From Candidatus Micrarchaeota archaeon (GTDB lineage: Archaea; Micrarchaeota; Micrarchaeia; Burarchaeales; JAKAKT01), in assembly GCA_041305385.1 (NCBI GenBank), contig JBFYLO010000011.1:8577-72576 (forward strand): a stretch of 64,000 bases of DNA, read 5' to 3'. The translations under genes were made by a program, and so were the position numbers. This document shows, piece by piece, positions 3,156 to 61,763 of this stretch; within the stretch, counting starts at the first letter, position 1; every line of letters starts with the position of its first letter. The notes beneath the pieces are model-generated. The model made no database searches and was not told the DNA's origin. It saw nothing but the letters and a program-made list of their open reading frames with translations.

Positions 3156-4475
3156 TTAGTTCCCAAGCTCCCCGTGAACTCTCACTAAGAATTCGTTCAG
3201 CTTCCCAGGCTCGAGCTTCCCGCCAGCAGCGATGTTGTGCCCTCCCCCCAAGCCAATCCCCTCAGTCGCGGCGTGCAAGAGCTTCGAGAGATTAACTCCC
3301 TCCTTAATGAGCTTCTGCGTGGCCCTGCCTGAAATCTTTATGCTTCCTTCATCGTAAAATGCGATTGCAATTATCGGCTTGTCCCTGCTTATAACCGAAT
3401 ACAGCATCCCGGCTACGACCCCGATAATCCCGTCCTCAATTACTCCCCGTCCATCCAAAAAGTAGAACTTTCCATAGTCCTCAACAGCATTCCGCCCATA
3501 TTCAATGCCGTCCCTCAGGGCTTTCCTGTGCTTCAGCAGAAGGGCGCTCGCTTCCTTGTAGGCTCCCTCCTCGCCAAGGCAAACCCCTACCCCGACCTCG
3601 GGCTTCCCGTGCCTCCCGCAGGCATTAATCAAAGTGGAGAATTCCTTCGCATCCGAGAGCTCGGTTCCAGCCGGCCTTCTAGGGAGCCCATAAACCTCCC
3701 CAATCAGTTCGCTGGCACTGTGGCCCTTCCCTACAGAATAAAGGTGCTTCACAAGCCCGCTCACAAATGTTTTTTTCTCCTCCCTGCTCAGTTCCCCGTA
3801 TTTCCTCCAGTTTTCCCCTTGCTTGGGCTCAATCCCGATGTCAGCGAGAAATGTTCCGGCTTTCTCCTCGCTCCCGGTTATCCCAGGCAAGTAGGGTTCG
3901 GTGCAGTAGGCAAGAAAAGAAACTAGCGGCCTGCTCACCCTTCCGAAGAGCCTCAAGTCCTGCTCGCAAGTTATTTCACCAGCCTCAACTCCCTGCTCGA
4001 GCACTTTCCTGTTCCAGCCAATGAACGGGTCCTGCATGTCCCCAACTGAGCCAACGATTGCGAGGTCCGCAAGGGAAGGCTCGCTGAAAACCAGGTAAGC
4101 GGTGCTCGAAGCAGACAGCTCCTTCCCGCCGTCAATTCCGAAAATGAAGGGGTTCACCTGGAGCACCTTACTATCATTGGCCTGGTGGTGGTCTATTATC
4201 AGCACTTCCGAATCAGGCAGGAGCTCCCCAATCCTCTCCCCCATCGCCCCGCCAAAATCAACGAAAACAATTTCGCGCTCACCCCTCAGCCCCTTCACAA
4301 TCCCCTCATCGAGGCTCCTGAAAGTTCTATTCTGAGGGTCCTTCCCCATCCCCATGAGTCCTTTCTTCACAAGCGAGCCAGAGCAAACCCCATCGCAGTC
4401 GTAGTGGTTGACAATGAGAGGATTCTTCATTCTCGCAAGAAACTCTCGCCCCTCTTTGCACCTGTCCTCGAACAT
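3156..4475 (-). CDS. DHH-family phosphoesterase (archaeal RecJ/GAN-like nuclease)
   Basis: Contains HYDCDGVCS (DHH motif I), VDFGG and IIDHHQ (DHH motifs), and a GGGH-containing DHHA1-like C-terminus. TATA TTTAAATATTT lies on the minus strand at 4495-4506. Confidence 0.7.
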   Translation of the reverse strand: MFEDRCKEGREFLARMKNPLIVNHYDCDGVCSGSLVKKGLMGMGKDPQNRTFRSLDEGIVKGLRGEREIVFVDFGGAMGERIGELLPDSEVLIIDHHQANDSKVLQVNPFIFGIDGGKELSASSTAYLVFSEPSLADLAIVGSVGDMQDPFIGWNRKVLEQGVEAGEITCEQDLRLFGRVSRPLVSFLAYCTEPYLPGITGSEEKAGTFLADIGIEPKQGENWRKYGELSREEKKTFVSGLVKHLYSVGKGHSASELIGEVYGLPRRPAGTELSDAKEFSTLINACGRHGKPEVGVGVCLGEEGAYKEASALLLKHRKALRDGIEYGRNAVEDYGKFYFLDGRGVIEDGIIGVVAGMLYSVISRDKPIIAIAFYDEGSIKISGRATQKLIKEGVNLSKLLHAATEGIGLGGGHNIAAGGKLEPGKLNEFLVRVHGELGN

Positions 4476-4513
4476 ACATTAACTTCGCCAAAGAAAATAT
4501 TTAAACCGGTCAG

Positions 4514-4622
4514 GGCAGCAGGTGCCGCGGCGCTTGCAGTCTCGCCCTCGGCCGTCTGCAAGCGGCCGCCCCCGAGGGCTGGCCGAGCCATCCGGATGGC
4601 TCGCCGCAATTGGCACTGCTGC
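4514..4622. repeat. GC-rich triple-hairpin intergenic element, copy A (terminal inverted repeats GGCAGCAGGTGCC / GGCACTGCTGCC)
   Basis: Hairpins: CGCTTGCAG..CTGCAAGCG; GCCCCCGAGGGC; GAGCCATCCGGATGGCTC (perfect palindrome). It lies in the divergent intergenic region between the recJ-like gene and the small membrane gene. Homologous copies sit at 10501-10600, 11711-11806, 56250-56354 and 61649-61763. Confidence 0.55.
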
Positions 4623-4628
4623 CTAAGG

Positions 4629-4637
4629 TATTTAAAT
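4629..4637 (+). promoter_or_regulatory. Archaeal TATA box (TATTTAAAT) about 32 bp upstream of the ATG at 4669
   Basis: The same palindromic TATTTAAAT box recurs at 1211-1219 and 9335-9343, and as a near variant at 4495-4506. The ATG is preceded by GGTGGT (SD-like). Confidence 0.4.
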
Positions 4638-4668
4638 CCCGAGAGTCCAGAGTTCTACTGGTGGTAAG

Positions 4669-4884
4669 ATGAAAAGCCCAGCAGGCTTCTTGCTCGAAGT
4701 TATCGGTGCAGTCCTAGTGGTTGCTTCCATTGCAGCAGCAGGACCGGCAATCGGTTCAATAATAGGCGGAACCACGAATGCAGTTTCCGATGTTCTAGGG
4801 GTGGTGTTCCTCGCCATAGCGGGGGTGGTGGGATTTGCCCTTGGTCTGTTCATGCACAAGATTGAGGCACTCGCAGGTGAGTAG
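4669..4884 (+). CDS. Small hydrophobic membrane protein (2 TM), hypothetical
   Basis: Good TATA and SD context. The sequence is Gly/Ala/Val-rich with two predicted TM helices. Confidence 0.4.
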   Translation: MKSPAGFLLEVIGAVLVVASIAAAGPAIGSIIGGTTNAVSDVLGVVFLAIAGVVGFALGLFMHKIEALAGE

Positions 4885-5100
4885 ATGAAAACAAAATTCG
4901 CACTCGCATCGCTAATGCTTCCAGCTCTTTCTTTCGCCCAGAACGCGACCGCAGTTGCAACCCCCTATATCTCGCCCTATTACCCGCTTATAACCAGCCC
5001 ATACCTCGCAGCAACCCTCACCCTGCTCCGGGACATCACGATAATTGTCGTGCTCTGCGTGATTCTCTTCAAGCAGTTCGAGGGGAAAGAGAAGAAATAG
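4885..5100 (+). CDS. Small secreted/membrane protein, hypothetical
   Basis: N-terminal signal peptide MKTKFALASLMLPALSFAQNA and a C-terminal TM segment. Its start abuts the stop of the previous gene. Confidence 0.4.
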   Translation: MKTKFALASLMLPALSFAQNATAVATPYISPYYPLITSPYLAATLTLLRDITIIVVLCVILFKQFEGKEKK

Positions 5101-5142
5101 TTACCGCATCCTGCCAAAGAACAATCTTCTGGCCCGAGCTTC

Positions 5143-6261
5143 TTAACCGAACATCCTGTCGAAGAATCCCTTCCTTTCCTTTTCTTCAGAGTCCCCGATT
5201 TTCTTCAGCGCTTCCTTCTGCTCATCGGTCAATTTAGTCGGAGTCCTCAAAATTACCCGGACAATCAGGTCCCCGCTTCCCCTTCCCCGGATTCTCGTCA
5301 TCCCCTGCCCCCTTAACCTAAAGAGGGTGTGGGTTTGGGTTCCAGCAGGAACAGTGAGTGTCGCTTTCCCCTCAAGAGTGGGAACCTCAACTTCCCCACC
5401 GAGCGCCGCCTTTCCAAATGAGACGGGTACCTCGCAATAGAGGTCATCGCCATCGCGCTTGAAGAACTCGTGGGGCGCCACGTGAACCACCACATACAAA
5501 TCCCCAGATTCTCCACCGTCATAATTCCCTTGCCCGCTCAGCCTCAAATAAGCCCCATCCTCGATTCCAGCAGGGATTTTTACAGTAATCCTATCCTCTC
5601 TCCGAATGCTTCCGCTTCCGCCGCATTTCTTGCATGGCTTTTCGGGAATCGAGCCAGTTCCCCCGCATTTTTCGCAGTCAGAGACTGTCATAAATTGCGC
5701 AAAACCCATCCTTCTGGCACTTCGAACTTTTCCTCTCCCCCCGCATTTCGAGCAAGTCACCCGCTTTCCCCCAAGCGACCCGGTTCCCCTGCACTCGCCG
5801 CAAGGCCCATTCCTGGGAACCATCACTTCCTGCTCAATCCCTGTTCCTGCCTGCTCCAAAGTGATTTGGACATCATAGCGGAGGTCATTATTTCTCCTTC
5901 TTCCCCCTCCGCCCATCCCGAAAAACGATTCGAAGATGTCCCCGCCAAAGCTCCCCCCAGAATCCCCGAAACCGAACTCCCTGAAAACATCCTCGAAGTT
6001 TACGTTCCTGAAGATGTCCTCCTGGGAGTACATCCGGTCAAAGCCCGCATGCCCGAACTGGTCATATTGTGCTCTCTTCTGGGCATCCGAGAGTACAGCG
6101 TAGGCCTCTGAAATCTCCTTGAATCTCTCCCCAGCCCCGGAATCCTTGTTCCTGTCAGGGTGGTACTGGAGGGCGAGCTTCCTGTAGGCGGTTTTTATCT
6201 CATCCAGCGGGGCTGTTTTCGAAACTCCCAGGATTTCGTAGTAATCTTTCTTGGTAGTCAT
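5143..6261 (-). CDS. dnaJ: Chaperone DnaJ
   Basis: J-domain KDYYEILGV...YHPDRN, G/F-rich linker, and four CxxCxGxG zinc-finger repeats ([32 protein letters not shown]). Confidence 0.92.
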
Positions 6262-6272
6262 TTGGGAGTCCC

Positions 6273-8156
6273 CTATTTCTTGTCATTCACCTTGTAATCC
6301 GCATCGTAGACATTGTCCCCGCCAGGTCCGTAATTGCCCTTGAAGCTGTCGCTTCCTCCACTGGCTCCCGGGCCTGCGGAGCCCCCGCCCCCGCTTCCGC
6401 CAGCACCTGCGCTTCCCTGGTACATAGAACCCCCGGCCTTCTGCATCACGTCCTTTAGTGCGTCTCTCCTAATTTTCACCTGCGCAATGTCCTGGCCTTG
6501 GAGCGCTTTCTTTAGGTCTTCAGTCTTCTCAGAGACTTCCTTCTTCAGGTCTGCTGAAAGCTTTTCCCCATATTCCTTGAGCATCTTCTCAGCAGTATAC
6601 ACCAAGGTTTCCGCTTCATTCTTGGTCTCAGCCTGCTCGCGAACCTCCTTGTCCTTCTCCTCGAACTTCTTTGCCTGTTCCATCATCTTCTCGACATCCT
6701 CCTTCGAGAGCTTGTTCGGGGCCATAATGGTGATTTTCTGCTCCTTCCCAGTCCCCTTGTCCTTCGCAGAGACGCTGAGAATCCCGTTTGCGTCTATGTC
6801 GAAGGCGACCTCCACCTGGGGCACCCCCCTCTGGGCAGGCGGAATCCCGTCCAGCCTGAAGTTGCCGAGCTCGACGTTGTCGCGAGCCATTGCCCGCTCC
6901 CCCTGGAGGACATGGATGTCGACGCTGGTCTGGAAATCAGCAGCAGTCGAGAACACCTGGGTTTTCTTTGTCGGGATGGTTGTGTTCCTGTCGATGAGCT
7001 TGGTCATGACTCCCCCAAGGGTTTCAAGCCCCAGCGAAAGCGGCGTCACATCGAGCAGCAGTATGTCCCGCACTTCCCCACCGAGCACGCCTGCCTGAAT
7101 CGCAGCGCCGAAAGCCACGCACTCCATGGGGTCGACTCCCCCTTCTGCTTTCTTGCCAAGCATGCTCTCAACGAAACGCTGCACAATCGGCATTCTGGTC
7201 GGCCCGCCCACGAGAATCACCCTTCCGATATCATTTGGGGTAACCTTCGCATCAGCGAGCGCCTGTTCAACCGAGCCCCTGCACCTCCGAATCAGCGGTT
7301 CGACAATCTCCTCGAGTTTTGCCCTGGTGAAATCGAACACAAAGTGCTTCGGCCCGCTCGAGTCCGCGCTTATAAACGGCAAATTAATCTGCGAGTTCAA
7401 GGTTGTCGAAAGCTCAATCTTGGCCTTCTCAGCAGCCTCTCGAAGCCTCGTATTAGCAACCGGGTCTTTGGATAAGTCCAGTCCTGTCTCTCCCTTGTAG
7501 TAAGCAACAAGGTAGTCGACAATCGTCCTGTCCATGTCCGTTCCGCCCAGCTGGGTGTCCCCGCTCGTGGACTTGACCTCGAATACCCCGCCTCCGAACT
7601 CCATTACCGTTACATCGAGAGTCCCGCCCCCAAGGTCGAAGACCAGGATTTTCTGCTCCTTCCCGGCTTTGTCAAGCCCATAGGCGAGCGAGGCAGCAGT
7701 CGGCTCGTTGATTATCCTGACTACATCCAGCCCAGCTATCGCTCCGGCATCCTTTGTCGCCTGCCTCTGGTTGTCATCGAAATAGGCAGGAACAGTTATC
7801 ACCGCCTTCTCGACCTTGTCCCCAAGGAACGCCTCCGCGTCCCGCTTAATCTTCTGCAATATGAAGGCCGAAATCTGCTGTGGGGTATACTCCTTCCCAT
7901 AAACCTTGTACCTGTAATCAGTCCCCATTTTCCTCTTCGCAGCCATCACCGTTCCTTCTGGGTTGGTAACTGCCTGCCTTCTCGCCGGCTCGCCAACCAG
8001 CATCTGCCCGTCCTTGGTAAAGGCGACAAATGAAGGGAAGGCCTTCCCAGCCACTGTAGTTCCCTCTGCGCTTGGAATAAGCCTCGGCCTGCCTCCCTCA
8101 AGGACAGCAGCAGCCGAGTTCGAAGTTCCAAGGTCAATTCCGATTATTTTTCCCAT
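6273..8156 (-). CDS. dnaK: Chaperone DnaK (Hsp70)
   Basis: Contains [17 protein letters not shown] and the C-terminal GG-rich tail. The ATG at 8156 is preceded by GAGGTG; the ORF track extends to a TTG at 8177. Confidence 0.93.
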
Positions 8157-8211
8157 ATTCAACACCTCTAAACGCAAGTTTTTTCCAGGCTCGCAACAAA
8201 AAAATCCAACT

Positions 8212-8257
8212 GCCCGAGTTCTCGAGGCATCCCGAGATGCCTGTTTTCGAGCCGGGC
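8212..8257 (-). promoter_or_regulatory. Nested palindrome GCCCGAG..CTCGAGGCATCCCGAGATGCC..CGAGCCGGGC between grpE and dnaK; candidate operator or intra-operon attenuator
   Basis: Perfect GGCATC/GATGCC stem with a CCGAG loop, flanked by CTCGAG and GCCCG/CGGGC arms. A T-run follows on the minus strand. The CCGAG-loop hairpin resembles the repeat family. Confidence 0.3.
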
Positions 8258-8277
8258 GAGCATTTTTTTGTTTTGTC

Positions 8278-8829
8278 TCACCTAGCTTTCTCCTCTTCAG
8301 CAGGCTTCCTCGTCACGCTCACCATGGCGTGCCTGAGAATCCGCCCGTTGTAAATGTATCCCTTCCTCATCTCCTTTGCGACAACCCCCTCTCCCCCCTC
8401 GCTTTCGACCATCTCGACCGCATCGCACCGGTCAGGGTCGAACTTCTTCCCAAGGCATACTATGGGCTCCACGCCCTCCCCCTCTAAGAGGTCCTCCAGC
8501 TTCTTGTGCAGGAGGCGGATGCCGTTCCGCAGCTCGCTCTCGCTGCTTGCGTGCATATGGGCCTCTGCGGCCTCGAACTCGTCGGCAAGGGCTATGAGCT
8601 TTGCAAGGACTGCCCCCCTGCCCTTTTCCGAGGCCTCGCCCTTCTCCTTCTCCGTCCGTTTCTGGTAGTTCTCGAACTCCGCCTGAAGCCTCTTCAGGTC
8701 ATTCACGAGCTCCGAGTTTTCCTTTTTCAATCCCTCGGCCTCGCTTTCCCCGGTTTCGAGAGCCACCTTGTCCTCCCCTTCTCCGCACTCAGCCCGCTCT
8801 TTCTGTTGATTCTCCCCTTCGACCATCAC
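8278..8829 (-). CDS. grpE: Nucleotide exchange factor GrpE
   Basis: Coiled-coil N-terminus [14 protein letters not shown] and the conserved GrpE C-terminal beta domain. It overlaps the upstream regulator gene by 4 bp. Confidence 0.85.
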
Positions 8830-9275
8830 AACCCCCCTCGCTCATTCCTCTTGAGCAGCCGTTTTTCCCTCATCTGGAATTCCCTTTCCAGCTCATCCAT
8901 GTCCTGGTCGATTTCCGCAGCCATTTTCTCAAGGTCCTCGAACATGGTGAGAGCCTGCTTCCGAAGCTCGTGCATCGTCATCTGCAGGTTCTCGTTCCTT
9001 AGGTGATAGCGCCTGTTCTCCCTCTCAACAATGCCTGCTTCCTCGAGCCTCTTCAGGTGGTGGAGGCAGGTTATCCGATTAACCCCCGAGAGTTCGGAAA
9101 GCTCGGAGCCCCCAATGCCATCGCTCCGGGAATACTTTACGACAGTCCGGAAGACTTGGACAACGGTCCTGTCCGTATCCCTGCCGGAGACTATCCCAGC
9201 AGCCTCGCACAGGGCCTCAATGGGGTCGCCCTTCCCTGGGACCCTCCTAATCCTTATCATCAGGCCTTCGGCCAT
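8826..9275 (-). CDS. Winged-HTH transcriptional regulator with C-terminal coiled coil, first gene of the grpE-dnaK-dnaJ operon
   Basis: HTH region GGSELSELSGVNRITCLHHLKRLEEAGIVERE and a Glu/Arg-rich C-terminal helix. There is a 4-bp stop/start overlap with grpE. Confidence 0.6.
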   Translation of the reverse strand: MAEGLMIRIRRVPGKGDPIEALCEAAGIVSGRDTDRTVVQVFRTVVKYSRSDGIGGSELSELSGVNRITCLHHLKRLEEAGIVERENRRYHLRNENLQMTMHELRKQALTMFEDLEKMAAEIDQDMDELEREFQMREKRLLKRNERGGL

Positions 9276-9485
9276 TTTTTCACTCCGAAATCGTTAATAT
9301 GATTTTAACAGTCTATTTTTTATGGGGGGAAAAGTATTTAAATGTTCATATCATCTTGACAGTTTTTGCGAACCCTTGGCTTTGCGAGCCATTATAAACC
9401 CATAAGTCCATAATTAGTCTGCCTCGTTGAGAGGCCCCGTCATATGCGGGATTAGCGCACTCAGAGTGCGAATTGGAAAAAATAG

Positions 9486-9722
9486 GTGGAAAGTATGGAT
9501 GAAGAAGGAGAAGACCGCGACGATCGCGGATTTGGCGGACACGGCAGAGGCGGCGGTCGCGGCGGAAGCAGGTTTGGCGGCGGCGGCAGGGGCTTCGGCC
9601 CAAGGGAAATGCACAAAGCAACTTGTTCCGATTGCGGACAGGAGTGCGAAGTGCCGTTCAAGCCAACAGACGGCAGGCCTGTTTACTGCAGGGACTGCTA
9701 CCAAAAGCACAAGAAGTTCTAG
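9486..9722 (+). CDS. RGG-box plus CxxC-x17-CxxC zinc-ribbon protein (putative nucleic-acid binding)
   Basis: Sequence is MESMDEEGEDRDDRGFGGHGRGGGRGGSRFGGGGRGFGPREMHKATCSDCGQECEVPFKPTDGRPVYCRDCYQKHKKF. AGGTGG precedes the ATG, and an oligo-T tract follows the stop. Confidence 0.6.
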   Translation: MESMDEEGEDRDDRGFGGHGRGGGRGGSRFGGGGRGFGPREMHKATCSDCGQECEVPFKPTDGRPVYCRDCYQKHKKF

Positions 9723-9750
9723 GTTTTGTAAACCTGAATTAAACTAATGC

Positions 9751-9776
9751 TTCTATTTCTATTTTTTATTTTAAGG
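9751..9776 (+). terminator. Oligo-T tract (TTCTATTTCTATTTTTTATTTT) downstream of the RGG gene; archaeal-type terminator
   Basis: T-rich run within 30 bp of the stop codon at 9720-9722. Confidence 0.35.
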
Positions 9777-9862
9777 CCCTAGGGGAAGCGCTAAGCGAGA
9801 AAAAATTCGAGTTAAAAAAAGAAATCACACAGAACTCTTGCCCCGAGAGCCTCCAGTTTGTT

Positions 9863-10432
9863 TTACTGGTATTTCCCGTTAATCGTTCCCGAGTCCGAGT
9901 GCTGGATGTTGTACTGGTCCAGGGCATAGGGGAACAAGAGCTGGTAGTTATACGCCCCCCCACTCGCCCCTCCGCACGGGTAAGAGGAGTTCGAGCCGAC
10001 AATCGTCCCGTTTATGATTACCTGCCTCCCAGCAGGCACACTGACCACCCAGACCCCGTTCACCGGGTCATGGACCAGGTCAAGCGGGTTCCCGACCTCA
10101 TCCCTGACCCCGATTGGCTGGTTGATGAACCCGCAGTTCGGGGCCCAGGGCTTCCTGAACTTCATGGTATACGCATCGTTACTTCCGTTTACCCCGAGGT
10201 CCAGGTCTATCCCGCCGATGTTCGCAAGCGCCAAGGTCACATAAGAGGTATCCTGGCTCCCGCCGACGAAATTCCAGGCCACCGGCCTCAATACAGAGAA
10301 CCCGGCAGCCTGCATCACTGAGGAAGGGTTGAACACCCCGAGGTTCCAAAGGACTACCGCCAGCACAACTATGACGAGCACTGCCCATCCGTAGCTCATC
10401 ATGTACTCAAAAGAGCCCTGTCCCTTACTCAT
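9863..10432 (-). CDS. Archaeal type IV pilin-like protein (class III signal peptide)
   Basis: N-terminus MSKG|QGSFEYMMSYGWAVLVIVVLAVVLW is a basic leader, with Gln at +1 and Glu at +5 relative to the predicted prepilin peptidase site, then a hydrophobic helix. The remainder is a Gly/Asn/Ser-rich secreted domain. TATA CTTTATAAC lies on the minus strand about 35 bp upstream. Confidence 0.7.
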   Translation of the reverse strand: MSKGQGSFEYMMSYGWAVLVIVVLAVVLWNLGVFNPSSVMQAAGFSVLRPVAWNFVGGSQDTSYVTLALANIGGIDLDLGVNGSNDAYTMKFRKPWAPNCGFINQPIGVRDEVGNPLDLVHDPVNGVWVVSVPAGRQVIINGTIVGSNSSYPCGGASGGAYNYQLLFPYALDQYNIQHSDSGTINGKYQ

Positions 10433-10500
10433 TCAATCGACAATATATTGGAAGAACGGTTATAAAGGATTGCCTACTCTGGCTCTGTAAAAAACCTTGG

Positions 10501-10600
10501 GGCAGCAGCGCACCGCGGCAGGCGGCATCCGGATGCCGCCTGGTCGGCTCCCGGGAGCCGACCTGCCTGCCCGGGCAGGCAGCCGCATGTTGGGGGCGCT
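10501..10600. repeat. GC-rich triple-hairpin intergenic element, copy B
   Basis: TIR GGCAGCAGCGC...GCGCTGCTGC. Hairpins are GGCGGCATCCGGATGCCGCC, GGTCGGCTCCCGGGAGCCGACC and GCCTGCCCGGGCAGGC. It sits in the divergent intergenic region between the pilin and tdh-like genes. Confidence 0.55.
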
Positions 10601-10758
10601 GCTGCTGGGCATTTCTACAGGGCCCCTACTCTCGTTCATCTGCTCCAACCTCCAAAACAAATCCTGAAATCGGGGATTTGCAGGTTCAGCAACTAGGAAA
10701 TCTTATAAACATCAACGCACAATTGCAGTTCTGATTTCATTATCACGGAGATGTTGAA

Positions 10759-11700
10759 ATGGGAAAAATACTGGTGACTGGCGCATTCGGGCTTGTTGGC
10801 TCAGACCTCGTCCCGGCGCTCCAGAAAAAGTACGGCAGGGAAAACGTAATAGCAATGGCCCATTCCCACTCCCCAGAGCATTTCGAGGGAGTTATTGAAA
10901 GCGGGGACGTGACTGCCCCGGATTCAGTCGAGAGGATAATAACGCAGTACGGAGTGTCTGAAATCTATCACCTATCTGGCATCATCTCAGCAGGAAGCGA
11001 GAAGAATCCCGCGCTCGCCTGGGCAGTGAACCTGGGCGGGCTGAAGAACGTTCTCGACCTCTCCGTGAAGCACAAACTGAAAGTGTTCTGGCCCAGCTCC
11101 ATCGCAGTCTTCGGCCCGACCACCCCGACGCAGAACACCCCCCAGCACACCGTCCTCGAGCCCACGACAATCTATGGGGTTGCAAAAGTCGCAGGCGAGC
11201 TCCTATGCCAGTACTACTCTTCGAGATACGGGCTCGATGTCAGGAGCCTCAGGTATCCCGGGCTTCTGGGCTGGAAGGCGCGGCCAGGGGACGGGACCAC
11301 TGAATATGCGATTTGGATTTTCTATGGGGCCATAAAGGAGGGAAAATACACTTGTTTCCTGAAAGAGGATTCTGTTCTTCCGATGATGTACATCGATGAT
11401 GCGATAAAAGGGACAATTGACCTCATGGACGCAAAGAAGGAGAGGATAAAAGTCCGGACAAGCTACAACTTCGCGGCGATGAGCTTCGCTCCGAAGGACA
11501 TATGTGAAGAGCTGAAAAAGCACGTCCCCGGGCTTAAGATGTCCTGCGAGCCGGACTTCAGGCAGAAGATTGCGGATTCCTGGCCAAAATCCATTGACGA
11601 TTCGGAAGCGAGGAAGGACTGGGGCTGGAAGCCAAAATACGATTTGCCAGCCATGACCAAGGAGATGCATCTTCACCTGAGCGAGAAACTGAAAAAATAA
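10759..11700 (+). CDS. NAD-dependent epimerase/dehydratase-family L-threonine 3-dehydrogenase-like (SDR-type TDH)
   Basis: Rossmann motif ILVTGAFGLVGSDLVPAL, catalytic YGVAKVAGE (YxxxK), and the characteristic C-terminus DWGWKPKYDL of UDP-Gal-epimerase-like threonine dehydrogenases. Confidence 0.7.
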   Translation: MGKILVTGAFGLVGSDLVPALQKKYGRENVIAMAHSHSPEHFEGVIESGDVTAPDSVERIITQYGVSEIYHLSGIISAGSEKNPALAWAVNLGGLKNVLDLSVKHKLKVFWPSSIAVFGPTTPTQNTPQHTVLEPTTIYGVAKVAGELLCQYYSSRYGLDVRSLRYPGLLGWKARPGDGTTEYAIWIFYGAIKEGKYTCFLKEDSVLPMMYIDDAIKGTIDLMDAKKERIKVRTSYNFAAMSFAPKDICEELKKHVPGLKMSCEPDFRQKIADSWPKSIDDSEARKDWGWKPKYDLPAMTKEMHLHLSEKLKK

Positions 11701-11710
11701 AAAACTAGAG

Positions 11711-11806
11711 CACGCGGTTCCTGCCGTCTCACTCAAAGCCGTCGGCAGGAAGTCTGCCCCCAGGCAGACCGAGTGCCCCGAGGCACTCGCCGCAATCGGC
11801 GCTGGG
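11711..11806. repeat. GC-rich triple-hairpin intergenic element, copy F
   Basis: Hairpins CCTGCCG..CGGCAGG, GTCTGCCCCCAGGCAGAC and GAGTGCCCCGAGGCACTC, followed by a GCCGCAATCGGCGC tail. The same tail is found in copies A and C. It sits in the convergent intergenic region between the tdh-like and ferritin genes. Confidence 0.5.
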
Positions 11807-11810
11807 AAAC

Positions 11811-12284
11811 CTACTCCCTCTTTCCAAGCTCCTTGTCGAGCACCATGAGGCCGCTTCCAGAGTTCCCAACAATCTTGAGCTTCTGGACAATCTCGTTCGC
11901 CGAATCCTCTTCCTCGACCTGCTCGTCTATGAACCACTTGAGCATGCTCCCGCTCGCCCTGTCCTTCTCGGACTCCGCAAGGTCAGCCAGGCCATAAATC
12001 ATCTGCGTTACATTCTTCTCGTGTTCGTACGCCTGCTCAAAGACCTCAAGCGGGCTCTTCCAGGAGCTAGGAGGCTTTTCAATAGTTTCAAGCACAACTC
12101 TCCCTCCCCTTTCAGCCACGAAATCGAAGAACTTCATCGCGTGCTTTTTCTCCTCCTCGGCCTGCTTTCTCATCCAGTGGGCAAATCCCTTCAAATTCTC
12201 TGCCTCAAAATAGGCTGCCATGGACAGATAAAGATAGCCTGAGTAGAGCTCGCGGTTTATCTGCCGGTTTATTGCGTCATTCAT
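11811..12284 (-). CDS. Ferritin (non-heme, Ftn-like)
   Basis: MNDAINRQINRELYSGYLYLSMAAYFE...EEEKKHAMKFFDF carries the ferroxidase E/ExxH residues. An internal ATG at 12284 is chosen; the ORF track's 12380 start would overlap the peroxiredoxin gene. Confidence 0.7.
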   Translation of the reverse strand: MNDAINRQINRELYSGYLYLSMAAYFEAENLKGFAHWMRKQAEEEKKHAMKFFDFVAERGGRVVLETIEKPPSSWKSPLEVFEQAYEHEKNVTQMIYGLADLAESEKDRASGSMLKWFIDEQVEEEDSANEIVQKLKIVGNSGSGLMVLDKELGKRE

Positions 12285-26483: not shown

Positions 26484-26750
26484 AAGTCTCCCGCTTTAAA
26501 TGCTGCGGGCAAGAATAAAAAACCGCCAGTCGATGCCATCCAGATAATGGCATGGGCGGACATACGCCCAACCAACGAGATAACTCGGGTTGCGCCCGAG
26601 CCTCGCCAACGCCGAGCGCGCAACGCCGGCGAACCCGAAAAATCAGGTTGGCATGGTGTAGCTCTTCCGAAGTGCCCTTCAGGCAACCCTGGAAATCATC
26701 TGGCGCTTGTGGTTCTGGCCTATCTCTGGGATTCGCCCTATTAATCTGTT

Positions 26751-56187: not shown

Positions 56188-56249
56188 AAGGACAAAGTTG
56201 CCAACAACTTTGGCCGCATTGGAATTAGCAAATTCCAATACAATATGAA

Positions 56250-56354
56250 GCAGCTGCATGGCGCGGTGCGAAGCTCCCGGGAGCTTCGCAGTCGGCATTC
56301 GAATGCCGACCGAGCCATCCGAATGGCTCGCCGCCAATTGCCGATGCAGCTGCC
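56250..56354. repeat. GC-rich triple-hairpin intergenic element, copy C (TIR GCAGCTGCAT...ATGCAGCTGC)
   Basis: Hairpins GCGAAGCTCCCGGGAGCTTCGC, AGTCGGCATTCGAATGCCGAC and GAGCCATCCGAATGGCTC, then a GCCGCCAATTGCCG tail. It lies in-frame inside the ORF-track extension of the 56245 ORF. Confidence 0.55.
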
Positions 56355-56355
56355 C

Positions 56356-57024
56356 ATGGTGGATGAGATGCAGAGAAAAATCAGCCCGCTCCACATCGTC
56401 GCCCTTTTCATAACGTCCCTAATATTCATAATCGGGATTCTAATCGGCTGGCAGATGGGATACACTGCCGAGAGCAAGATGAAGGGAGAGCTTGAGGGGC
56501 TCAGGAGCGAGCAGTATGCCCTGGATGTCCTTTCCCTCATGAGGGAGACCGGCGAGGCCGGGTGCCCAGCGCTTCAGAACGAGTTCGCCGAACTTTCAAC
56601 AATGACCATCGAATATGGTAACAGCCTCGATTACATGGAGAAGAAGCTGGGAAAGCTGGACCCCGAAGTCATGAGCCTCAAATCCGATTATTCGTTGATG
56701 CAGGCCAGGAACTACCTTCTGTTGAAGGACATGGACAAGAACTGCGGCTCAAGCCACATCATAATTCTGTACTTCTACACTAATGAGGACTACTCCGCAA
56801 GCACGGACCAGGGAATTGCCCTCCAGGATGCACTCGCCCAGTTGCCCGCGATTCGCGAGAAAACCGCCATCTACCACTTCGATGTAAATGTGAATAACCC
56901 GGTGATGGATGCATTCAAGGAGCAATATGGGGTTACTAAAGTTCCAACCATGATAATCAAAGGGAAGAAATACGAGGGCTATGTGAGCGCTGAAAAATGC
57001 AGGGAGATTTTTGAGAATGCGTGA
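56356..57024 (+). CDS. Membrane-anchored thioredoxin-fold protein, hypothetical
   Basis: The start is taken at ATG 56356, immediately after the repeat element. The ORF-track start at 56245 would translate the repeat as RSSRELRSRHSNADRAIRMARRQLPMQ. An N-terminal TM is followed by a glutaredoxin-like C-terminus VPTMIIKGKKYEGY. Confidence 0.4.
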   Translation: MVDEMQRKISPLHIVALFITSLIFIIGILIGWQMGYTAESKMKGELEGLRSEQYALDVLSLMRETGEAGCPALQNEFAELSTMTIEYGNSLDYMEKKLGKLDPEVMSLKSDYSLMQARNYLLLKDMDKNCGSSHIIILYFYTNEDYSASTDQGIALQDALAQLPAIREKTAIYHFDVNVNNPVMDAFKEQYGVTKVPTMIIKGKKYEGYVSAEKCREIFENA

Positions 57025-61648: not shown

Positions 61649-61763
61649 CACAACTTCCGCAGCGCCACGGCGCGGTGAGAAACGCCCCGAGCGTTTCTCA
61701 GTCGGCCTCCGAAGGCCGACCAAGCGCCTCGCAGCGCTTGCCGCTTATTGCCGGTGGCGCTGC
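61649..61763. repeat. GC-rich triple-hairpin intergenic element, copy D (TIR GCAGCGCCAC...GTGGCGCTGC)
   Basis: Hairpins GAGAAACGCCCCGAGCGTTTCTC, AGTCGGCCTCCGAAGGCCGAC and CAAGCGCCTCGCAGCGCTTG, then a GCCGCTTATTGCCG tail. It lies between the NuoI-like gene stop and the hypA start. Confidence 0.55.

Follow-up and report, generated by a model that had tools for sequence, protein, structure and literature searches.

A family of GC-rich three-hairpin elements in a Candidatus Micrarchaeota genome: probable MITE-like transposons with a covarying four-way junction

The window (the whole 64,000-nucleotide stretch of DNA that was analysed, 52% GC) contains dnaJ-dnaK-grpE, a membrane-bound hydrogenase-like cluster with hypA, and ordinary housekeeping genes, and for two of its proteins the closest homologues (60-80% identity) carry the NCBI name Candidatus Micrarchaeota. 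Between these genes lie five non-coding elements, referred to as copies A to E, with a size of 98-144 bp and a GC content of 66-78%. Copy A (4506..4628, + strand, 123 bp, with the core and its outer stem at 4514-4623) is located in a promoter region between the gene of a DHH phosphoesterase and a gene of 71 aa. Copy B (10481..10624, + strand, 144 bp, cloverleaf core 10502-10605) is found between a gene of 190 aa and an epimerase gene, and copy C (11705..11806, + strand) lies where the epimerase and ferritin genes converge, between their stop codons. Copies D (56250..56353, + strand) and E (61659..61763, + strand) are inside operons, D between a glycosyltransferase gene and a thioredoxin-like gene and on the sense strand of its genes, E between the genes of a 4Fe-4S subunit and hypA, both of which are on the minus strand, with E antisense to them. 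An initial annotation of this DNA had described a mixed placement, with two copies in divergent promoter regions, two after gene 3' ends and one in the hydrogenase-hypA cluster, and this was upheld.

Open reading frames crossing the copies are short and not conserved, and the Pfam search involves no domain in them. Two long frames of the window (56245-57024 and 4185-4667) run straight through copies D and A. When the thioredoxin-like gene is called from ATG 56245, it gains 37-41 spurious N-terminal codons by way of copy D; the start shared by the relatives, MERRISPLH, corresponds to ATG 56368 in the window. Between D and E there is also a gene of an 818-aa peptidase, for which the homologue search found no orthologues in the relatives.

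The five loci share one architecture, which consists of an outer stem, an internal loop on the 3' side, an inner stem, and three abutting perfect hairpins that together form a four-way junction. Both the folds and the covariance model described below confirm the five loci proposed in the initial annotation. The outer stem has 10-13 bp, with GCAGC at its start and GCTGC at its end, in copies A, B, D, and E, and the outer repeat of copy C is short and imperfect. The proposed inverted-repeat boundary is supported. At the junction of the two stems 4-5 nt are unpaired on the 3' side only (AATT, ATGTT, CAATT or TTATT, i.e. AAUUG-like). The inner stem, CGCGG(Y)...GCCGC, is invariant among the five copies. 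Each of the three hairpins has a stem of 7-10 bp, with no linker between neighbours. In copy D, for example, the outer stem is at 56250-56262 / 56340-56353, the inner stem at 56263-56266 / 56331-56334, and the hairpins at 56267-56290, 56291-56310, and 56311-56330, all on the + strand. No pair is broken in D or in E. Copy C has, besides its short outer stem, a long first hairpin that resembles that of copy A.

Several details of the hairpins had to be corrected. The hairpin GTCGGC-N8-GCCGAC occurs three times in the window, against 0.13 expected, and is found in copies B (10501), D (56250), and E (61649) rather than in B, C, and D; the GAGCCATCCGRATGGCTC hairpin is shared by copies A (4514) and D (56250) rather than by A and C. 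The loops, previously given as CCGAG, CCGGGAG, and CCCAG, are mostly the tetraloops CCGG, CCGA, TCGA, and CCCA. With RNA or DNA parameters, and on either strand, the minimum-energy structure of every copy is the four-way junction, with z-scores of -3.7 to -7.7 (RNA parameters) and -4.8 to -9.6 (DNA parameters). No curated covariance model of Rfam 15 matched at its gathering score in the whole 64-kb window, and nothing relevant appeared at E up to 5 in 4300-12000, which spans copies A, B, and C. A tRNA origin of the elements was considered and rejected, as ARAGORN finds no tRNA in the window.

Within the window, a plain fold descriptor (GCGG, three hairpins, CCGC) matches these five loci and no others; however, it gives 135 matches in 910 kb of GC-rich bacterial DNA. 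Because it is unspecific in GC-rich DNA, a covariance model was relied on instead, trained on B, D, and E together with two copies from other sources, with A and C left out. When the model was run with its filters off, it matched exactly five places in the 64 kb, and the next match had E=6. Copies B, D, and E score 103.5, 113, and 106 bits, respectively. The untrained copies are recovered as well, A by a match at 4512-4625 (55 bits, E=1e-10) and C with 40 bits (E=5e-7). In 764 kb of GC-rich bacterial DNA used as a negative control there is one match of 27 bits, compared with 40-113 bits for the copies. Further copies were recovered in the relative L121 and in metagenome contigs, as discussed below.

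For the pattern CGCGGYN{18,36}GTCGGCN8GCCGACN{15,25}GCCGC there is no true copy among the genome-contig matches listed, which are chance matches in bacteria of 60-75% GC; these bacterial loci served as negative controls only. Two different sequence patterns gave no match to the family in viral contigs, and blastn of copy D against plasmid and phage collections gave none either. The initial annotation had taken the family to be undescribed; among the papers searched, none mentions both Micrarchaeota and 'miniature inverted-repeat'.

Two other regions of the window, 8190-8260 and 26550-26630, had been regarded as weaker members of the family. They are structured (z -3.2 and -4.1, respectively) but unrecognised by the model, and they were not accepted. 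The first belongs to the dnaK / grpE spacer, where 8195-8270 is one long palindrome whose outer arms are A7/T7 and whose tip is GGCATC-CCGA-GATGCC (z -3.2); this spacer varies from 11 to 224 bp in relatives. In the second (26520-26650, z -4.1), four clustered GC-rich hairpins separate a DsbD-like gene from the gene of an MFS transporter, and the model does not place them in the family. A different closed GC-rich element was observed in L148 (3570-3700, minus strand), in which an outer stem surrounds two hairpins and a third hairpin stands before it. It is a weak match to the family model (E=0.045) and comes from the organism that carries the IS5-like element described below.

The initial annotation had also pointed to conserved stems with compensatory variation, and the covariation of the stems is supported. 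In an alignment of five sequences 94% of the cells are standard pairs, 25 of the 43 pairs differ on both sides, and none varies on one side only. The observed covariation was reached by 0 of 500 shuffles, and controls with slid partners pair at only 29-50%. For pair counts the stems of A and C were segmented by hand, since MAFFT misaligns their long first hairpin. A count over seven distinct copies gives 163 Watson-Crick cells out of 168 in the stems, and 19 of the 24 stem positions vary between at least two pair types. A comparison of the first hairpin of E with that of the L121 copy illustrates the compensated double changes (GAGAAACGC/GCGTTTCTC vs GGAAAACGC/GCGTTTTCC). Conservation of sequence is confined to the outer-end GCAGC, CGCGG(Y)...GCCGC, and the 3' tail, to which the middle-hairpin stem GTCGGC/GCCGAC can be added in five of the seven copies. 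Beyond the outer stem, copies A and B and the metagenomic subfamily have nothing obvious in common.

G-U pairs make up 5 of 286, as against 10% in the folds of shuffled sequences. Their near absence means that the fold has to function on both strands. It could do so as DNA, single-stranded or in a cruciform during transposition, or as RNA transcribed from either strand. In the young metagenomic copies, on the other hand, all four private substitutions (4/4) break a pair. Since diverged lineages keep Watson-Crick stems while young private mutations break pairs, it appears that the three-hairpin four-way junction is needed for the propagation of the element. In our reading, the fold is selected while lineages propagate, and not at each resting copy.

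Whether the copies were inserted can be judged from relatives in which the gene order is kept, namely L121-L124, L143 (epimerase 78-79% identity), and L144 (72%), and, for sites D and E, from the relatives L140-L142, whose NuoH-like protein has 60-66% identity. All five sites are empty in these syntenic relatives (A, B, and C in L121, L143, and L144; D and E in L140-L142). At site A, the spacer between the DHH phosphoesterase and the 71-aa gene has 62 bp in the relatives (L121, L144) and 193 bp in the window. At site B, the distance from the 190-aa gene to the epimerase is 74-126 bp in the relatives (74 in L121, 91 in L143) and 326 bp in the window. At site C, the epimerase and ferritin stop codons are 1 bp apart in L121 and L143 and 110 bp apart in the window. 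At site D, L140, L141, and L142 have the glycosyltransferase gene abutting or overlapping the thioredoxin-like gene, while the window has 180 bp before the start codon that corresponds to that of the relatives. At site E, the gene of the 4Fe-4S subunit is 13 bp (L140) or 5 bp (L141) away from hypA, compared with 126 bp in the window.

The difference is also seen in the other direction. The model finds a single copy in about 150 kb of relatives. It scores 88 bits, is at 5474-5578 of L121, and lies in the dnaJ-dnaK spacer, which has 11 bp in the window. Presence and absence in both directions is what mobility predicts, and elements that evolved in place would not give it. Therefore, the copies are insertions, and the shared modules, inner stem, 3' tail, and architecture show that they descend from a common ancestor element. 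All five copies of the window and the L121 copy point one way on the syntenic strand, which is a weak signal (two-sided p ~0.03, n=6), and the GC skew stays below zero throughout the window.

Other differences were observed around these sites. In L125 (2841-3125), a relative of 80% identity, site B has the same two TATA-like boxes, and the roughly 170 bp that separate them are unrelated in sequence and weakly structured; this spacer appears to be a site of recurrent insertion or a variable site. In the segment from the 71-aa gene to dnaJ (L121 2656-4302 vs window 4669-5143), L121 has three extra small open reading frames and a ParE/YafQ-type toxin gene pair that are absent from the window. Just upstream of copy D there is a pair of perfect AT-rich hairpins (56193..56239, + strand, z -4.1), CAAAGTTG-CCAA-CAACTTTG and ATTGGAATT-AGCA-AATTCCAAT. 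This pair falls within the same 180-bp stretch that is absent from the relatives, and it has the same design as the GC-rich hairpins (stems of 8-9 bp, 4-nt loops) with the opposite composition.

Target-site duplications at the ends, a check proposed in the initial annotation, were found at A and B (8 bp each) and not clearly at C, D, and E. Copy A is flanked on the left (4498..4505) and on the right (4629..4636) by the TATA-box-like 8-mer TATTTAAA, to which no strand is assigned and which is the longest direct repeat within +/-45 nt of the copy (P=0.027). Inside it are short extra arms, CCGGTCAG.. on the left and ..CTAAGG on the right. The empty site in L144 reads ...AAAGTATTTAAATCCC... and has the 8-mer TATTTAAA once (TATTTAAATCCC), followed by TCCC as in the window; the empty site in L121 has CATATAAAGC once. 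Judged from its sequence, the target at site A looks like an archaeal TATA box. After the insertion one TATA-like box lies at promoter distance from each of the two divergent genes and may act as its promoter. Copy B is flanked by the exact 8-bp direct repeat CCTACTCT at 10473..10480 and 10625..10632, likewise without an assigned strand (P=0.01 for an 8-mer within 45 nt). Within these repeats its core is enclosed by a second pair of inverted arms, GGCTCTGTAAAAAAC.. / ..CATTTCTACAGGGCC, complementary at 12 of 15 positions (the pair can also be written GGCTCTGTAAAAAAC and GGCCCTGTAGAAATG, 12/15).

No exact flanking repeat above chance was seen at C, D, E, or the L121 copy; exact repeats at C, D, and E do not exceed 4-6 bp, and the best candidates at the four copies agree at 5-6 of 8 positions or have 4-5 bp. 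Thus the sole candidate at copy C, AAAACTAG / AAACCTAC, matches at 6/8 positions and is not a clear duplication, and the flanking repeat of copy E has 5 bp only (GTGAA, minus strand). Copies D and E are without broken pairs although they are without clear duplications. They were either inserted without a regular duplication or maintained in place.

A further subfamily was found in metagenome contigs, where a refined pattern scan returned 13 stretches, five of them chance matches in GC-rich DNA and eight belonging to the family. The eight copies (contigs L127-132, 134, and 135, from one study, Ga0233420 to Ga0233422) have 133 bp, are at least 99% identical, and lie in differing contexts. In this subfamily the cloverleaf is placed within perfect 11-bp terminal repeats (11/11), TAGGGCGTTGA...TCAACGCCCTA. 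All four complete copies (4/4) have abutting direct repeats of 6-9 bp, which are AAAAATGAA, CTGCGAAA, TTTCGCC, and GGAAAA. Four contigs end inside the element, and the Logan contig L001, which also contains copy C, starts within copy B; assemblies break inside the copies as they do in repeats. In the sequence features examined, the subfamily looks like a recently active MITE. The candidate ends of the elements are GCAGC..., GGCTCTGTA..., and TAGGGCGTTGA..., and no common 4-5 nt target motif was found in the flanks of the copies.

Taken together, the empty sites, the duplications at A and B, and the terminal inverted repeats and duplications of the metagenomic subfamily point to a non-autonomous transposon of the MITE type, which was one of the options offered in the initial annotation. 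The explanation proposed here, to which a probability of roughly 0.7 is given, is that the five loci are non-autonomous MITEs of one Candidatus Micrarchaeota lineage, moved in trans by a transposase that is encoded elsewhere and makes staggered cuts of about 8 bp. This enzyme, most likely of the DDE type, would be encoded elsewhere in the genome, would cut in a staggered manner, and would mobilise the elements in trans. It would recognise the outer stem (GCAGC...GCTGC), with or without the extra terminal arms. At least some insertions (A, B, and 4/4 complete metagenomic copies) were made by a cut with a target duplication of about 8 bp. The type of the enzyme and the role of the fold are the parts that we infer.

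In about 50 open reading frames of the window Pfam shows no transposase, HUH enzyme, TnpB, integrase, or recombinase domain, and no autonomous element with ends matching the family was found, either among the window frames or in the IS5-like element beside a metagenomic copy, whose ends do not match. This IS5-like element (L132 108-1352, same contig as L151) has 1,242 bp, ends of the type GGCTGTGGGACAGAAC, a 330-aa transposase, and a divergent DUF2080 frame, and is 170 bp from one metagenomic copy. The transposase is similar to the NCBIfam IS5 model with E=2e-10 and 40 bits, which is below the curated cut-off of 140 bits, and has no Pfam match. The element is present in at least eight genomic contexts (L146-L155) of an uncultured archaeon, in short contigs only. 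Some IS5 subgroups generate duplications of 8-9 bp, and the left arm of copy B (GGCTCTGTAAAAAAC) agrees with the IS5-like end GGCTGTGGGACAGAAC at 12 of 19 positions. However, the IS5-like element was not accepted as the mobiliser, since its ends mismatch those of the neighbouring subfamily and the adjacency is seen in one of 10 contexts. The IS5-like family is a lead only to the source of the transposase.

Three observations do not fit a plain DDE-type MITE: the lack of clear duplications at C, D, and E, the presence of five different variants within 64 kb, and the single shared orientation. They would be covered, together with the drift of sequence and termini around perfect stems and the flawless pairing of D and E, if the cloverleaf itself, as folded single-stranded or extruded DNA, were the unit read by a structure-specific transposase or recombinase, with one orientation relative to replication. 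This seems unlikely as an account of the family.

A related and similarly unlikely explanation names the enzyme: a structure-specific protein of the Y1/HUH type (IS200/IS605, RAYT), or an attC-style recombinase, would mobilise folded single-stranded DNA by recognising the cloverleaf and would insert it in a strand-specific manner. A structure that is conserved while sequence and outer ends vary, pairing that is Watson-Crick only, a fold that is stable as single-stranded DNA, and the missing duplications at C, D, and E would all be consistent with it, as would the common orientation of the six syntenic copies (6/6) under a GC skew that is negative window-wide. According to a published report (PMC13343696), IS200/IS605 elements are moreover present in over 65% of the genomes of Micrarchaeota. 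On the other hand, A, B, and 4/4 complete metagenomic copies have abutting duplications of 6-9 bp, and A has an empty counterpart with a single copy of the 8-mer. Insertion without target duplication is the rule for IS200/IS605 and REP/RAYT elements. Furthermore, the roughly 50 window frames contain no HUH, TnpB, or integrase domain, and the flanks lack a conserved 4-5 nt target motif. The duplications speak against this mechanism, and transposition in trans by a staggered-cutting enzyme is preferred.

Alternatively, the loci could be elements of the host that act in the transcript as small RNA genes, cis-acting stabilisers, terminators, or insulators, with mobility secondary or absent; this is regarded as rather improbable. 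The strong fold and its covariation would suit such a function, D and E lie within transcription units and have perfect stems, and stems that are Watson-Crick only let an RNA fold in either orientation. The stably folded transcripts of MITEs are known to affect expression (PMC10969869). The near absence of G-U pairs, however, is unlike typical RNAs, the Rfam search gave no match, even at E up to 5 over copies A, B, and C, and private mutations in young copies are uncompensated. Likewise, the orientation to transcription is inconsistent (D sense, E antisense), a T-run follows copy E only, and no copy has a promoter-like box at a fixed distance. Since the orthologous sites of the relatives are all empty, no conserved host function is tied to the flanking genes. 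An origin as an RNA terminator or a REP/BIME-like element, which the initial annotation had left open, is thus disfavoured by the lack of a fixed transcription orientation and of consistent T-runs and by the absence of a RAYT/HUH gene from the window. It is possible that the hairpins, once transcribed, exert an effect after insertion.

The last explanation, that these are unrelated GC-rich palindromes or ordinary terminator hairpins alike by chance, takes its plausibility from the abundance of hairpin clusters in GC-rich bacterial DNA under the loose descriptor, and it is refuted by the 52% GC content of the window, in which that descriptor finds only the five, by the E-values of the held-out copies and the nearly empty 764-kb control, and by the invariant inner stem, 3' tail, and hairpin modules that the copies have in common.

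Micrarchaeota are DPANN archaea with small genomes. Nearly all that is known of them comes from metagenomes, and little has been described of their mobile DNA. Against this background the family is evidence that such a genome has changed recently: a promoter, two operons, and the space between two converging genes have each received insertions. In practice, its copies break assemblies and mislead gene callers. The family is, besides, an exceptionally clear example of non-coding mobile DNA whose fold is kept by covariation and whose termini are not. If the mobilising enzyme does read the fold, archaeal transposition would have a recognition principle that is new, and DPANN would have a structure-defined class of elements comparable in principle to attC and REP-RAYT, distinguished by the fold and by the target duplications.

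Among the known systems, integron attC sites offer an analogy of principle only, as recombination substrates with a conserved fold and a highly variable sequence that are read on one strand. An attC site is a single imperfect hairpin with extrahelical bases, occurs in cassette arrays beside an integrase, and recombines without target duplication; neither the imperfect hairpin nor the arrays or the adjacent integrase are seen here. The REP/BIME-RAYT systems and the PATEs are closer, being GC-rich extragenic palindromes in many copies in which structure prevails over sequence, which may act on single-stranded DNA, and whose orientation can be biased. A REP consists of one imperfect hairpin (20-40 nt) and a conserved 5' tetranucleotide and makes no target duplication, whereas the present elements have three hairpins closed by two stems and duplications at several copies, and the window has no RAYT/TnpA. 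PATEs derive from IS200/IS605, e.g. in Haloquadratum (PMC3119063).

Prokaryotic MITEs include Correia/CREE of Neisseria, ERIC, RUP, Nezha/Chunjie of cyanobacteria and Geobacter, and SM1-4 of Sulfolobus (PMC11602168, PMC10969869). A survey that covered 8,220 archaeal genomes, DPANN among them, found MITEs in 20%, with up to 100-146 per Mb (PMC11602168); the density in the window, 5 per 64 kb (~78 per Mb if uniform), is below that of the densest archaeal genomes. MITEs are typically AT-rich, their terminal repeats are conserved, and stable stem-loops form in their transcripts (PMC10969869). The present family differs in its GC content of 66-78% and in that its conserved part is an internal junction with Watson-Crick covariation rather than the terminal repeat; in addition, the sequences outside the outer stem vary between subfamilies, and there is no known parent insertion sequence. 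It shares with MITEs that it is short, non-coding, multi-copy, and bounded by inverted repeats, with duplications at some copies and presence or absence among relatives, that it is mostly intergenic and tolerated in operons, and that its transcripts would fold stably. Overall, the family departs from MITEs in being GC-rich, in its closed three-hairpin core, in its variable termini, and in having no known parent, and it fits them by its size, non-coding nature, inverted ends, copy number, presence and absence, and duplications at several copies.
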